From a virus (Duplodnaviria; Heunggongvirae; Uroviricota; Caudoviricetes): a stretch of 4,409 nucleotides of DNA. Shown one piece after another: positions 1-4,409 of this stretch (position 1 is the first letter of the stretch; each line of letters opens with the position of its first letter). A model generated the notes under the pieces. The model ran no database searches and was not told the DNA's origin. It worked only from the letters and a program-made list of their open reading frames with translations. The stretch lies in the IMG/VR virus record IMGVR_UViG_2529292717_000009; one strand, given 5' to 3'. The translations under genes were made by a program, and so were the position numbers.

Positions 1-350
1 CCTGCGATGCCCTGCAGATGGCGCTGTGGCGGCGTAAGAGGCCCCGGAACGTTATCGTTCACACGGACCGTGGAGGCCAGTACTGTTCAGCAGATTATCA
101 GGCGCAACTGAAGCGGCATAATCTGCGTGGAAGTATGAGCGCAAAAGGTTGCTGCTACGATAATGCCTGCGTGGAAAGCTTCTTTCATTCGCTGAAAGTG
201 GAATGTATCCATGGAGAACACTTTATCAGCCGGGAAATAATGCGGGCAACGGTGTTTAATTATATCGAATGTGATTACAATCGGTGGCGGCGGCACAGTT
301 GGTGTGGCGGCCTCAGTCCGGAACAATTTGAAAACCAGAACCTCGCTTAG
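1..350 (+). CDS. insF: IS3 transposase OrfB (InsF-type, DDE integrase core), C-terminal fragment; 5' end beyond the window edge
   Basis: The frame is open from nt 3 ([29 protein letters not shown]...), so the annotated ATG at 18 is internal. It contains the second catalytic Asp context (HTDRGGQY) and the catalytic Glu context ([14 protein letters not shown]) typical of IS3-family DDE transposases. Stop TAG at 348-350. Confidence 0.9.
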
Positions 351-380
351 GCCTGTGTCCATATTACGTGGGTAGGATCA
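342..380. repeat. IS3 right terminal inverted repeat (IRR), about 39 bp, overlapping the 3' end of orfB
   Basis: Terminal sequence ...GGCCTGTGTCCATATTACGTGGGTAGGATCA ends at 380 with CA. It matches the remembered IS3 IR when reverse-complemented. The exact inner limit of the IR is approximate. Confidence 0.7.
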
Positions 381-467
381 TGGAAAAGGCAAGTGTTATT
401 GCAAAACTGCAATCTCTCGGCTTTGTAATTGCTGGTTATGAAGAACTTGCGATCCCTACGACTTAAC

Positions 468-472
468 AAGGA
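468..472 (+). promoter_or_regulatory. Shine-Dalgarno (AAGGA) for the 343-aa ORF
   Basis: AAGGA at 468-472, 8 nt upstream of ATG 481. The in-frame upstream stop TGA at 439-441 prevents any longer N-terminal extension. Confidence 0.6.
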
Positions 473-480
473 AAATAATA

Positions 481-1512
481 ATGAATGATTTATCAACATA
501 TTTTGGCGTTAATACTGCGGTAGTAACTCCATTTGCTTATGAGAATGCACTTAATACCCTGATTACTAATCTCGATCTGTTCGATGTGCAATATCATACA
601 GAAAACAGCATTCTTCTTACCGACCTGATTGATCAGTTTGTGCAGGTAGCTGGGGAAACCTCGCCTTACGCTCAAAGCGACTGGAACGCCTCTAAACGTC
701 AGGAATGGTCAAACAAACTTTTCCAGATGAAACACGTCGGCAGTATTAACGCTGTTACTTCTCGTGACCTGGAACAATACAGCCGCCAATATCCAAACCG
801 TTCTGATGCTATGCTGGTAGCGGTTAATGATTTCTCTGAGGCTCATTACCGTTCACACGCAAACCGTGTTGAAGTGGATCTGATTACCGCGCTGCTGGGC
901 CTGAAAGTTGAATCTGAATATGCCGGACAAGGTGATCTCGACTTCCTCGACGGTCAGGCTAAAACCACGGTACCCGCTATCGACTTTGCATCGACTACTG
1001 TTAACCCGTTCCTTGCTATTCGTAAAGCGGTGCGCTTACAGAGTGAAAAGCTGGGGTCTGGTCTTGCTGCAAAGCGAACTGGTGTAATTATCTTTGCTGC
1101 TGGCACTGCTGCTGATGGTTTGTCATCTAACCCGCTGATCAGTGACATGGTGAAATATGCAGGCGATGCGAGTGCTACGGCCCTGTTTACCCGTATGGTT
1201 GATTCTAACCCAGCCTATGACTCTTTCCAGATTGGTGGGATCACTGTTATTGATGTGTCAATGTTTCCTGAGATTGTTGCTCACATCGGAGAGAACGGTT
1301 TCGCAATTGTTCCGGTAATGGATAAAGCGGCACAGTGTTACCAGCTTCACACAGGCGTTGGTGTGCGTCATGCTGAGTTAGGTCAAGATGCCGTGTTACA
1401 TCACCAATATCTAATCAAGGATGAATTCCAATTCCCATCTGTGGTTACTGAGACATCTTATCTGCCAGTAAACAACATTCCGCAAGCTATCATCTTCGGA
1501 TCTGCTGCGTAA
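481..1512 (+). CDS. hypothetical protein, 343 aa; function unknown (soluble, Ala/Thr/Val/Asp-rich; no Walker A or other catalytic motif seen)
   Basis: Long uninterrupted ORF with ATG start and good SD; stop TAA at 1510-1512 followed by a second TAA. No membrane-spanning segment is evident. Size and composition are compatible with a structural protein (capsid-like), but this is conjecture. Confidence 0.8.
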   Translation: MNDLSTYFGVNTAVVTPFAYENALNTLITNLDLFDVQYHTENSILLTDLIDQFVQVAGETSPYAQSDWNASKRQEWSNKLFQMKHVGSINAVTSRDLEQYSRQYPNRSDAMLVAVNDFSEAHYRSHANRVEVDLITALLGLKVESEYAGQGDLDFLDGQAKTTVPAIDFASTTVNPFLAIRKAVRLQSEKLGSGLAAKRTGVIIFAAGTAADGLSSNPLISDMVKYAGDASATALFTRMVDSNPAYDSFQIGGITVIDVSMFPEIVAHIGENGFAIVPVMDKAAQCYQLHTGVGVRHAELGQDAVLHHQYLIKDEFQFPSVVTETSYLPVNNIPQAIIFGSAA

Positions 1513-1653
1513 TAAAGCATTAATAGACGATTCCCCATAGGGGCAATAAGGGTAAGGGATAATCATATAAGCAAAATATGCGCTGTCTCTTGCCCTTTTT
1601 GTTTTTCTACTGTCTACAAACCCAAATAAAAATATATATGTGAGAGAAAACCA

Positions 1654-1851
1654 ATGAATACAGAAAACCCACAATCCTTTATTCTTAAGGCTGTAAAAGA
1701 ACTGGCAGCTATTAGCGAGGAATCAGTTATAAACACATCGGCGCTTTGCCGCCTTTTAGAAATTGATGCAAATAATGTGCGCCAGCGTGTCTTTCAGACT
1801 GGGTGCAGCACTTTCGAAGCAATTCAATACTATTGCTCTAAAAAACAATAA
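1654..1851 (+). CDS. small hypothetical protein, 65 aa; possible helix-turn-helix DNA-binding protein
   Basis: ATG at 1654 preceded by a weak SD (GAGAG at 1642-1646). The segment TSALCRLLEIDANNVRQRV has the hydrophobic/polar pattern of an HTH recognition unit. The short length keeps confidence moderate. Confidence 0.5.
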   Translation: MNTENPQSFILKAVKELAAISEESVINTSALCRLLEIDANNVRQRVFQTGCSTFEAIQYYCSKKQ

Positions 1852-1870
1852 TAAACAACAATCATAATAC

Positions 1871-1875
1871 AGGGA
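1871..1875 (+). promoter_or_regulatory. Shine-Dalgarno (AGGGA) for the 614-aa ORF
   Basis: AGGGA at 1871-1875, 10 nt upstream of ATG 1886. Only 34 nt separate it from the upstream 65-aa ORF, suggesting co-transcription. Confidence 0.55.
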
Positions 1876-1885
1876 AACAATTAGC

Positions 1886-3730
1886 ATGTTAGAACTTAAC
1901 GTCAGCCGCTTATCAAACGTTGTCACCTTCCAGGTTGATCGACCATCATTAGAGAAAGCAAAAGCAGAAGTAGAAAAACTTCGTAAACAAATGGCGGCTG
2001 TGAAAGATATAGAATTGCGTATTAAGACACATAAACAATCAACCGCTAAAGCAAAAAAAGACGTAGACGATATTGCTAAAAAGCAAGCACAGGCTGATAA
2101 AGCTAATGCTAAAGCACAATTAGCCGCTCAACGTGTAGTTGCAAGAGAACAAAAAGCCCTGGCAGCACGCAAAGAGAAGGCAGAATTAAAGCTTTTAGAC
2201 GTTGGATCAAGCATTAGTGCAATGCACCGTCTTTCTGTAGCGGAACAATATAAAGCTATTGCACAGGCTAGAGAAATTGCCCTCCAATATGAAAGAGGCG
2301 CTATTAGTCTGGCACGTATGAATAGCCAAATGAAACGCCTACAACAGCAACAACGTAAGATTAATGGCAATCGTAACGCTCACGCTAAAGCCTATGCACC
2401 TGTTAAGGGTAGCGGGAGTATTGGCGGCGGTGCTGCGGCTGTTATGCTGGGTGGCTTAGGCGCTGGCGCTACGTATATGGCTATGAGTAAAGCCTCTGAA
2501 TTTGTTACTAACAGCTTTGCGAATGCTGAAACAGAAGGAGAATTAATCCAACGTGCAAGGCTTGGTGGAGTTGATTACAACTTACTTAATAATCTTGAGC
2601 GTTGGGCATATGACAACGGGATCGATAGCCTCCAGGGTGATCAGGGACGCAGAAAAATACTAGATGCCATCGGTAAAGATGTAAAGGAACGCGCTACCAA
2701 AAGCTATGACGAGGCTGAATATGTAGTTGATAAGAAAACTGGTAAAGGAGAATGGAAGGGCGGCGATAGCGGCATCAATACTTTAATGAATGAAGGATTC
2801 TTAACTAAAAAGGATCTAAAAGACTTTGCTGATAATCCGGCTGGTCTGGTTAGTAAAGCAGTTCAGGGAATGGTAGCTAAAGGCTATTCAGATGCACAAA
2901 TCGGTAGTCGTCTGGAAGATCTGGCTGATGATTTGATGCTCACCTCTAAATACTGGACACGCTCCGCTAAAGAAGTGGAACAATCAGCACGAGAACAACG
3001 AGAATCAGGGCGCTGGGTAACACAGGCACAACAGGAAAGCGTTATTAAATTCCGTGAACTGAATAATGCACTTAGTGGGCTTTCTGACTCACAAGGGATC
3101 GCCTTTGTTGATGGCTTTATGAAATCTCTTGATCCGAAAGTGATTGAAGAGTTTAAAAAGAGCATGGTTGCAATGCTGCCAATGTTTACCAAATTAGGCG
3201 AGGCTGTAGGCGGTCTACTTAATGCGATCATGAAAACTATCAACTGGTTGATGAAAAACGACGAGAAGACGGCAGCTATTCAGAAGAATTTAGGGGATGC
3301 ACCGCCACTATCTAACGAAGGAATGAAGCAGAATCTTTCTAATCTCACTCCTGATCAATATAAAGGCGCTGGCACCGGAACAATTAAGCCAGATAACAGC
3401 AATTCCCTGGTTAACACTATTAAAAGCTGGTTTATGCCAGAAGAAACGGTAGGTGGGGCGCAGGCTGTAAATCAATACAGTCTCGAAGGACAAAACATTG
3501 CAAATCTGAAACAGAGTGCAGCACAACAAGCTTTCAAGGCTCCTTCTTACACCTTTGCACCTGTTATTAACTTCAATCCAGAATTACAAGTAAATGCAGA
3601 AGTGCCGCTAACTATCGAATCAGACACCGGACGATTGAGCGAATTTATCGACTTCAAATCAAAGGCATCCTCCGCTGAGTTTAGCAAGCTATTAACGCTG
3701 GGTGTTATGTCAGGCGGGTCAACCTATTAA
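1886..3730 (+). CDS. hypothetical protein, 614 aa: N-terminal Lys/Ala/Gln-rich coiled-coil-like region, single Gly/Ala-rich hydrophobic segment, large C-terminal domain; function unknown
   Basis: Longest ORF in the window, with ATG start and SD. Residues about 20-165 are low-complexity and charged (AKAKKDVDDIAKKQAQADKANAKAQLAAQRVVAREQKALAARKEKAELK). Residues 175-200 (GSGSIGGGAAAVMLGGLGAGATYMAM, nt 2408-2485) are Gly/Ala-rich and hydrophobic, transmembrane-like. Stop TAA at 3728-3730. Confidence 0.85.
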   Translation: MLELNVSRLSNVVTFQVDRPSLEKAKAEVEKLRKQMAAVKDIELRIKTHKQSTAKAKKDVDDIAKKQAQADKANAKAQLAAQRVVAREQKALAARKEKAELKLLDVGSSISAMHRLSVAEQYKAIAQAREIALQYERGAISLARMNSQMKRLQQQQRKINGNRNAHAKAYAPVKGSGSIGGGAAAVMLGGLGAGATYMAMSKASEFVTNSFANAETEGELIQRARLGGVDYNLLNNLERWAYDNGIDSLQGDQGRRKILDAIGKDVKERATKSYDEAEYVVDKKTGKGEWKGGDSGINTLMNEGFLTKKDLKDFADNPAGLVSKAVQGMVAKGYSDAQIGSRLEDLADDLMLTSKYWTRSAKEVEQSAREQRESGRWVTQAQQESVIKFRELNNALSGLSDSQGIAFVDGFMKSLDPKVIEEFKKSMVAMLPMFTKLGEAVGGLLNAIMKTINWLMKNDEKTAAIQKNLGDAPPLSNEGMKQNLSNLTPDQYKGAGTGTIKPDNSNSLVNTIKSWFMPEETVGGAQAVNQYSLEGQNIANLKQSAAQQAFKAPSYTFAPVINFNPELQVNAEVPLTIESDTGRLSEFIDFKSKASSAEFSKLLTLGVMSGGSTY

Positions 3731-3763
3731 TCATCGCTGTGGGGCTGTTTAGCCCCCTTAAAT

Positions 3764-3768
3764 AAGGA
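3764..3768 (+). promoter_or_regulatory. Shine-Dalgarno (AAGGA) for the 87-aa ORF
   Basis: AAGGA at 3764-3768, 9 nt upstream of ATG 3778. Confidence 0.5.
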
Positions 3769-3777
3769 TTACAAATT

Positions 3778-4409
<632 letters not shown>

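Follow-up and report, generated by a model that had tools for sequence, protein, structure and literature searches.

We analyzed a 4,409-nt stretch of DNA (hereafter, the window) from the IMG/VR virus record IMGVR_UViG_2529292717_000009 and found it to be a fragment of an Escherichia coli island lying between two insertion sequences (ISs). The 343-amino-acid (aa) protein coded by its positions 481–1512 almost certainly adopts the HK97 capsid fold, and the gene can be annotated as that of a major capsid protein. Together with its neighbors, it marks a conserved, satellite-like family of islands, apparently undescribed until now, that carries a subset of the capsid and tail-core genes of phi92-type phages. 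The combination of phi92-like shell and tail-core genes with a lack of DNA-packaging genes suggests that the island is probably a satellite of phi92-type phages; the full model, namely a helper-dependent satellite of phi92/phAPEC8-like phages that builds a small capsid of its own, is the one we favor, with moderate confidence. We found no paper on this island, nor on satellites of phi92, rV5 or phAPEC8-like phages, in the literature searched, which omits most subscription journals.

The fold was read from an AlphaFold2 model of the protein built from 16 homologs (predicted local distance difference test (pLDDT) 62.6; predicted template-modeling score (pTM) 0.64), in which an N-arm, an E-loop, a P-domain with a long spine helix and an A-domain follow one another in the canonical HK97 order. 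A Foldseek search of the PDB with this model recovered 93 matches at E ≤ 1e-3, and the top 50 are all HK97-fold capsid or encapsulin shell proteins. The best are PhiTE (2e-12) and ICP1 (4e-12), along with Bas63, Sf14 and lambda (2.5e-6); weaker matches include encapsulins and one gene transfer agent (GTA) capsid (E of about 1e-5 to 1e-4), and 9gyi, the capsid of a capsid-forming phage-inducible chromosomal island (cf-PICI), is also a weak match.

Direct profile scans returned no Pfam match for the 343-aa protein even at E ≤ 1 and none in NCBIfam; the sole PHROGs match is a weak one to a major head family (5.8e-5), and phmmer against PDB sequences gave a marginal match to gp124 of phage phi92 (E = 0.014). 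Among its relatives, PF03864 (phage major capsid protein E) was found in 11 of the 16 aligned homologs (best 2.6e-9), is carried by homologs at 42–49% identity and is matched by nine of ten distant relatives, at up to 1.7e-28. In a set of 1.84 billion proteins, the family comprises just 60 representative clusters. Its profile aligns colinearly with phi92 gp124 over 233 columns (hhalign, 24% identity, E = 1.8e-5), and the capsid protein of a Yersinia island bridges the two, matching the window protein with E = 3e-32 and gp124, over its full length, with E = 4e-12. By these comparisons, the nearest phage relative of the 343-aa protein is phi92 gp124. The segment best conserved with the phi92-type capsids is an N-arm motif, TLIxxLxLFDVQYH, with 24–48% identity versus 14–22% elsewhere. 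These results bear out a preliminary description of this DNA, which had suspected a capsid-like, beta-rich structural protein: the top PDB matches are HK97 shells, PF03864 recurs among the relatives, and both the structure prediction and the profile–profile comparison that it had proposed point the same way.

Like the gp124/PF03864 capsids of Stephanstirmvirinae-type myoviruses, the 343-aa protein combines the HK97 fold with a comparable length (343 versus 333 aa) and the N-arm motif. In contrast, it is just about 18–24% identical to them, itself falls below the PF03864 threshold, and is coded by a 13.5-kb integrated island, whereas gp124 belongs to a 149-kb virulent genome. Lambda gpE was tried as a model for the capsid and rejected (hhalign E = 0.68), as was lambda gpD for the family of the adjacent cement protein (hhalign E = 0.37), though the cement fold resembles gpD; we regard the family as phi92-like, not lambda-like. 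A comparison of the capsid N-arm with the capsid protein of the local phage showed no clear host-specific co-variation.

The neighboring genes supply the second line of evidence. The features of the window are as follows:

1–378, plus strand: right end of an IS3-family element, with the transposase C-terminus at 18–350 (Pfam rve_2/rve_3/rve); interrupts the cement gene and does not belong to the island.
379–466, plus strand: 3′ end of the gene for a 127-aa cement (decoration) protein, comprising its last 29 codons and stop; truncated by the IS3 element.
468–472, plus strand: Shine–Dalgarno core AAGGA, 8 nt 5′ of the ATG, by direct reading.
481–1512, plus strand: 343-aa major capsid open reading frame (ORF), ATG to TAA, with the HK97 fold; kin of phi92 gp124 and the PF03864 family.
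1548–1607, plus strand: hairpin at about 1548–1597 followed by TTTTTGTTTTT; terminator- or attenuator-like, 3′ of the capsid gene.
1654–1851, plus strand: conserved 65-aa helix-turn-helix (HTH)-like ORF with no Pfam, PHROG or NCBIfam match.
1886–3730, plus strand: 614-aa tape-measure-like protein (phrog_16051, E = 2.4e-29); homolog of phi92 gp134.
3778–4030, plus strand: 5′ third of the gene for a 225-aa tube initiator (Dit_like), homolog of phi92 gp135; truncated by the IS21 element.
4031–4409, minus strand: end of an IS21-family element, with an istB fragment at 4092–4385 (PF01695 IstB_IS21, E = 9e-43); not part of the island.

As the reference for the layout of the island we used NZ_CP024269 (L001), a genome without the two IS insertions, in which the cement ORF is intact (L001 19705–20088). 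In the window, this gene stops at 466, 14 nt before the capsid ATG, and in a second genome (L002) its first 100 codons are found on the far side of the IS3 element. When the 127-aa protein was modeled with AlphaFold2 from an alignment restricted to island sequences (pLDDT 77, pTM 0.71), its first matches were decoration proteins, those of Bas63, PhiTE and Sf14—the same virions that gave the best capsid fold matches—and next came the phage 21 SHP and lambda gpD. The protein also matches the phi92 cement protein gp123 (phmmer 1.3e-4 in a 23-protein database; hhalign 1.2e-3). On the strength of the model, the gene directly 5′ of the capsid gene is predicted to code for a gpD-like trimeric cement protein.

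Downstream, the 614-aa protein gives a colinear full-length match to phi92 gp134 (E = 1e-23), and a tblastn search with it recovered 134 of 50,697 phage records, all of them of the phi92/phAPEC8 type. Three divergent tape-measure variants from the islands match the identical 134 of 50,697 records at 30–40% identity; these records are Stephanstirmvirinae-type myoviruses of 145–155 kb. The tube-initiator gene is intact in L001 (23410–24087; PF21821, E = 1.2e-27), and the 225-aa product is 50% identical to phi92 gp135 (E = 8e-63) and up to 54% identical to its counterparts in phi92-type phages. Homology of the tail genes is confined to phages of the phi92/phAPEC8 type. RefSeq names for both proteins are misleading: depending on the genome, the tape-measure homolog is called 'flotillin family protein' or 'hypothetical', and the tube initiator appears as 'phage baseplate protein' or, in phage records, as 'tail fiber protein'.

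In the phi92 virion, gp122 is the scaffold, gp123 the cement protein, gp124 the capsid protein of a T=13 head (where T is the triangulation number), gp134 the tape measure and gp135 the hexameric tube initiator (PMC13450770). The corresponding genes run in the order gp122, gp123, gp124, eight neck, sheath, tube and chaperone genes, gp133, gp134 and gp135, and the best phi92 match of each structural protein of the island is its positional counterpart. By homology, then, the cement, capsid, tape-measure and tube-initiator genes of the island are a colinear subset of the phi92 module (gp123, gp124, gp134 and gp135). Phi92-type phages and the island agree in having a beta-tulip cement gene directly 5′ and a terminator directly 3′ of the capsid gene, with tape-measure and tube-initiator homologs further downstream in the same order; they differ in that the island lacks the eight neck, sheath, tube and chaperone genes found between capsid and tape measure in phi92, and also terminase, portal and scaffold genes. 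The preliminary description had placed the 343-aa gene at the head of a cargo module. It is instead the second member of a cement–capsid pair, and its neighbors form a contracted phage morphogenesis module, not cargo.

The 65-aa HTH-like ORF between the capsid and tape-measure genes shows the conserved motif L..L..LL.V....VRQR in its alignment, and profile searches found no relative of it among the structural proteins of phi92, ZCKP1 and phAPEC8; specifically, it was rejected as a homolog of phi92 gp133. It might function in packaging redirection or in regulation of the island. A profile search was also negative for the 65–79-aa ORF 5′ of the cement gene in the E. coli islands as a candidate mini-scaffold. 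In Yersinia massiliensis (L019 9148–9438), a 96-aa ORF directly 5′ of the cement gene is 41% identical to residues 6–91 of the gp122 scaffold and may be such a mini-scaffold. Islands of this Yersinia branch occur widely in Y. enterocolitica and its relatives.

The capsid gene itself is real and intact, far beyond what chance would produce. The preliminary description had recognized a well-formed gene, and this holds: the ATG-to-TAA frame belongs to a 90% protein cluster of 494 member sequences, its homologs are 339–347 aa long in about 12 genera with 62 invariant columns in their alignment, and the ratio of nonsynonymous to synonymous substitution rates (dN/dS) is 0.03–0.14 (Nei–Gojobori; 17 pairs with unsaturated dS). 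These values indicate strong purifying selection on the gene. The window recurs, over 80% or more of its length, in 141 of 5,426 complete E. coli genomes (about 2.6%). The ribosome-binding site described as strong is a decent one in sequence and spacing, and 'strong' is slightly generous. The account of the protein as acidic, rich in Ala, Thr, Val and Ser, and devoid of a P-loop, a His/Cys cluster or a transmembrane segment agrees with our measurements: its pI is 4.84, with 38 Asp and Glu against 22 Lys and Arg; Ala makes up 11.1%, Val 8.7%, Ser 7.6% and Thr 6.4% of a sequence that is also rich in Leu; direct reading found no GxxxxGK[ST] motif; there is one Cys, and the nine His are scattered. 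The maximal 19-residue hydropathy of 1.45 indicates the absence of a transmembrane segment.

The spacer that follows (1513–1653) is exactly 141 bp long with 34.8% GC, just as the preliminary description had it in calling it AT-rich. Its RNA folds with −35 kcal/mol (z = −2.3), and a hairpin followed by a T-run occupies the same position in 9–10 of 12 islands with differing stem sequences; phAPEC8, likewise, has an annotated terminator after its capsid gene. A simple terminator scanner found none in the spacer, missing this hairpin because its loop exceeds 8 nt. Such an element would fit a high output of capsid with less read-through downstream. The suggestion that the capsid gene is a separate transcription unit is, thus, supported by the positionally conserved hairpin and T-run, but not by a promoter, as a sigma-70 scan yielded no more promoters downstream than in shuffled sequence.

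The island portion of the window is bounded by the two ISs. RefSeq annotates an IS3 transposase at its 5′ end, genomes without this IS3 match the window solely from 379/380 onward, and similarity to other genomes ends at 4030. None of the complete E. coli genomes searched has both insertions together, the best matches covering 1–4030 only. The copy of the island in the window is damaged on either side, the cement gene being interrupted by IS3 and the tube-initiator gene by IS21; the capsid and tape-measure genes between them are intact.

In L001, a 25-nt direct repeat of the 3′ end of tRNA-Thr (12058–12082 and 25583–25607) bounds 13.5 kb, with the island placed between tRNA-Thr and a tyrosine integrase on the reverse strand, which is intact and carries PF00589 and DUF6538. 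From left to right, the island codes for a 183-aa protein, followed by a 2.1-kb ORF-poor stretch, small ORFs, a 208-aa HTH_36 protein, four more small ORFs, a 1-kb ORF-poor stretch, proteins of 65–79, 127, 343, 65, 614 and 225 aa, and the integrase. The 2.1-kb ORF-poor stretch contains four to five tandem 22-bp iterons, GGTAGGTCACTGTGAGCTAGGG (L001 15113–15222), about 1.3 kb 5′ of the Rep-like HTH_36 gene (L001 16564–17190), whose 208-aa product has a predicted replication function, matching replication-initiator PHROGs at 1e-7. The iteron region is probably the replication origin of the island. Among the ORFs of at least 50 aa in the island, Pfam and PHROGs revealed no terminase, portal, protease, sheath, tube or baseplate protein, and scaffold and neck genes are likewise absent; an Rfam scan of the island found a tRNA only. 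RefSeq annotates the island genes as hypothetical.

Several other features of the island and its surroundings may be recorded here. The 183-aa protein at the left end (L001 13460–14011) has a signal-like N-terminus and several Cys residues, and matches only PHROGs of uncharacterized function (phrog_2578, 1.4e-17); this secreted-looking protein may be an accessory or cargo gene product. Directly 5′ of the capsid module, about 1 kb (L001 18519–19460) has no convincing ORF and gave neither an Rfam match nor a phage DNA match; a Klebsiella island has a similar, shorter ORF-poor gap. Directly past the right attachment (att) site, L001 25773–39911 contains another integrase gene and, after it, genes for antirepressor, Icd-like, DUF4222, DNA primase, ProQ/FinO and PerC proteins; it resembles a P4/PICI-type satellite that has integrated at this tRNA-Thr as well, forming a tandem with the island.

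We then surveyed 101 loci from isolate genomes, IMG/VR and metagenomes, with fractions given for those having enough flank. The cement gene lies directly 5′ of the capsid gene in 97 of 99 loci, and the small HTH-like ORF is present in 85 of 90 and the integrase in 44 of 51. A tape-measure homolog follows the capsid gene in 74 of 75 loci, which answers in the affirmative whether homologs of the capsid gene and of the 614-aa gene co-occur in other genomes. With tblastn, we found the TerL (large terminase subunit), portal, sheath, tube and hub proteins of phi92 or lambda in 0 of 101 loci, no Pfam terminase or portal occurs among the called genes of four lineages, and no locus among the 101 is an intermediate with more phage genes. 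The capsid, cement and tape-measure genes occur together in about 100 loci, drawn from about 12 enterobacterial genera and Yersinia. The hosts include E. coli, Klebsiella, Citrobacter, Buttiauxella, Kosakonia, Kluyvera, Phytobacter, Scandinavium, Raoultella and Yersinia, to which the source names of homologous proteins add Enterobacter, Cronobacter and Pluralibacter. The islands occupy different tRNA or other chromosomal sites, with at least two integration sites in E. coli alone.

Comparison of individual loci with L001 reveals that the capsid and tail modules recombine independently. L026 (11418–14049) has cement and capsid genes that are 100% identical to those of L001 alongside a tape measure at 28% and a tube initiator at 54%; L006 (11398–13970) has a capsid at 57% and a cement protein at 71% with a tape measure at 85%. 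This pattern across the loci, together with the low dN/dS, is indicative of an active family of mobile elements and not of a decaying prophage, and the capsid gene is very probably a functional gene of a mobile island and no remnant.

A potential link to the helper also emerges from the ORF-poor DNA. A 40-nt sequence, TTGCGAGAGGTGCTTAACGCGATTTTCAGCGCCCCCCGAT (L001 14329–14368), recurs with 100% identity, as a single copy, in 62 phi92-like genomes of 145–154 kb, in contrast to the 25–50% identity of the proteins. The phage copies are apparently non-coding and, in W22, the sequence lies about 400 nt 5′ of gene 1. This motif might be a cis site for the helper machinery, such as a pac site, a promoter or an origin. 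Among the islands, it is found only in L001, L002, L021 and L025. In Klebsiella (L003, about 5956–6001), about 46 nt are 83–97% identical to T5-like phages (about 110–120 kb) of Salmonella, Klebsiella and E. coli; these matches often lie in or near the terminal repeats, and this phage group differs from the one related to the island proteins. L001 contains a related motif, AGAGCGTTTTAG, as an inverted repeat (15872–15911 and 24091–24130).

Taken as a satellite, the island might work as follows. Infection by a phi92/phAPEC8-like virulent myovirus would lead to excision and replication of the island. Capsid and cement proteins would be produced in large amounts, while the hairpin 3′ of the capsid gene would limit read-through toward the tail genes. 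The island capsid would then assemble on the portal and scaffold of the helper into a shell much smaller than its T=13 head. If volume scales as T^1.5, the 148.6 kb of a T=13 head correspond to a capacity of about 16 kb for T=3 and about 25 kb for T=4; the island measures 13.5 kb. The helper terminase would pack island DNA into the small shell, and helper tails would complete the particle. The tape measure and tube initiator of the island could become part of the tails, contribute to delivery or hamper the helper. That the island depends on a helper, forms particles and is packaged is what we infer. The broader proposition is that the islands form a new, widespread satellite family of E. coli, Klebsiella, Citrobacter, Yersinia and related genera that preys on virulent phi92/phAPEC8-type myoviruses, and that they are the first to supply their own shell and tail-core parts while borrowing portal, terminase, sheath, tube and baseplate; we hold this to be evenly balanced between true and false.

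Several observations weigh against this satellite model. First, metagenomes yielded no excised, packaged, island-sized or circular form and no whole contig with terminal overlaps: the 13,513-bp contig L043 is a chromosomal fragment, and the IMG/VR matches are provirus predictions in genomes. Second, no sequenced phage exceeds 54% identity in any island protein, and a tblastn search with the 343-aa protein against 50,697 phage genomes gave no match, so that the capsid gene does not point to a particular helper. This lack of a match, together with an identity to gp124 of only about 18% outside the N-arm, casts doubt on whether the capsid docks on a phi92-type portal and scaffold; the pLDDT of the capsid model is also just 62.6. 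Third, the tail genes are without precedent in described satellites, and only 24 of 51 loci have the tube initiator. Fourth, the second E. coli lineage lacks the 40-nt motif, and the equivalent region of the Klebsiella island matches T5-like phages instead. The reading of this motif as a cis site is further weakened by a one-base indel between L001 and L002, which indicates that a 127-aa ORF overlapping it is not a real gene.

The main rival reading also accommodates part of this evidence: the structural homologs would be decoys that abort the assembly of phi92-like virions and protect the population, the island being an assembly-poisoning defense element that is itself not packaged. The shell, cement, ruler and tube-initiator proteins, the only ones of the module that the island keeps, all polymerize with helper structures or template them; exchange of the tail module is independent of that of the capsid module, as expected in an arms race, and no packaged form has turned up in metagenomes. 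Interference with tail assembly is also a known strategy of mobile elements (PMC11364771). However, none of the structural proteins matches any PADLOC model, and a decoy has no obvious need for a full-length capsid kept at a dN/dS of about 0.1, a matching cement protein or a phage-like terminator after the capsid gene. Moreover, the island's own integrase, att sites and replicon, and its spread over about 12 genera at different sites, imply horizontal movement by some route. We regard pure defense as unlikely; a defensive role can nevertheless coexist with the satellite model, as interference with the helper is usual among satellites.

A narrower role for the capsid protein is modeled on SaPIbov5, whose Ccm is a satellite-encoded homolog of the helper capsid protein (PMC8569155). 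The 343-aa protein might similarly co-assemble with the helper capsid, e.g., at the pentamer positions, and force a smaller head, as Ccm does with phi12. Consistent with this, the island, like SaPIbov5, has a capsid homolog and no portal, terminase or protease, and the N-arm is the part best conserved with phi92-type capsids. Nevertheless, mixed lattices are less plausible at about 18–24% identity to phage capsids, the island's own cement protein suggests a self-consistent shell surface, and cement and capsid stay together in recombination, both being 100% identical in L026 and 71% and 57% identical, respectively, in L006. We consider this role improbable.

Still less support attaches to a decaying remnant, in which the capsid gene would be a now functionless leftover of a complete phi92-like or lambda-like prophage. 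The surroundings are littered with ISs, two island genes are disrupted in the window, everything is named hypothetical by RefSeq, and there are long ORF-poor stretches. Against this stand the dN/dS of 0.03–0.14, the recurrence of one minimal, identically ordered gene set in about 100 loci ranging from E. coli to Yersinia, clean att repeats, an intact integrase, a tidy intergenic structure with a conserved terminator, and the lack of any intermediate with extra phage genes in the 101 loci. Phi92-like phages, moreover, are virulent, with genomes of 145–155 kb, and not known to lysogenize. We deem such an origin very improbable. Finally, a helper-free cellular nanocompartment of the encapsulin type or a GTA-like particle, which the weaker fold matches might bring to mind, is scarcely credible: phage capsids match better by 6–7 orders of magnitude, there is no cargo-enzyme gene, the neighbors in this integrase-bounded island are cement, tape-measure and tube-initiator genes, and no tailed particle is possible without tube, sheath, portal and terminase.

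Returning to the satellite model, we compared the island with the known systems, using the published SatelliteFinder definitions for PICIs and cf-PICIs (PMC10085698). It fits none of the P4-like, PICI, cf-PICI or PICI-like element (PLE) definitions. The PICI definition comprises int, an alpA-type regulator, pri-rep, and terS or a capsid-morphogenesis gene, and excludes tail, portal and connector; that of cf-PICIs requires portal, head–tail adaptor/connector, TerS (small terminase subunit) and TerL, and forbids tail genes (PMC10085698). The island is neither a PICI nor a cf-PICI because tail genes are forbidden components in both, and no match to AlpA, a primase-replicase or TerS was found in it with Pfam and PHROGs. 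Like the island, the cf-PICIs (e.g., EcCI2) are chromosomal islands of about 10–17 kb with an integrase and their own HK97 capsid; they obtain the remaining virion parts from a helper (PMC10085698), as our island probably does. However, cf-PICIs encode portal, protease, adaptor/connector, TerS, TerL and HNH proteins, none of which the island has, and lack its tail-core genes; furthermore, their known helpers are temperate, whereas the phages related to the island are large virulent myoviruses.

SaPIbov5 resembles the island in having no portal or terminase of its own while carrying a homolog of the helper capsid (PMC8569155). In contrast, Ccm works together with the helper capsid in a Gram-positive cos-phage system, and the island capsid is very divergent from that of the candidate helper and comes with its own cement and tail-core genes. 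The PLE of Vibrio cholerae offers a different parallel: it is integrated and, as the island may also do, parasitizes a large virulent myovirus, in its case ICP1, and forms small capsids (PMC12846349). The ICP1 capsid, the second-best fold match, belongs to the same structural clade as the 343-aa protein. However, PLE has no capsid gene and remodels the ICP1 coat by means of TcaP, an external scaffold; its recombinase is of the serine type, and it is confined to V. cholerae (PMC10085698), whereas the island has enterobacterial hosts, a tyrosine integrase and a capsid gene. P4 is a satellite that, like the island, has a capsid-decoration protein (Psu), and it alters head size by means of the external scaffold Sid; unlike the island, it uses the capsid protein of its helper P2. 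Pfam and PHROGs revealed no homologs of psu, sid, delta, epsilon or alpha among the island proteins. To our knowledge, the well-studied E. coli satellites (P4, PICIs and cf-PICIs) all exploit temperate phages, and the only well-studied satellites of large virulent phages are those of Vibrio (PLE and phage-inducible chromosomal minimalist islands, PICMI).

These findings allow five 'hypothetical' genes to be named, namely those for the cement protein, the major capsid protein, the tape measure, the tube initiator and the Rep-like protein. Current satellite detectors would miss the island because they count tail genes as disqualifying. Phages of the genera Phapecoctavirus and Justusliebigvirus are used against avian pathogenic and uropathogenic E. 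coli and against Klebsiella. If the satellite model is true, the islands, which are carried by about 2.6% of complete E. coli genomes, could block such therapy phages and exploit them for gene transfer. It would also offer a tractable setting in E. coli in which to examine how a foreign capsid docks on the portal and scaffold of a helper and would widen the range of satellite strategies to one that combines its own shell and its own tail ruler with a borrowed packaging motor.

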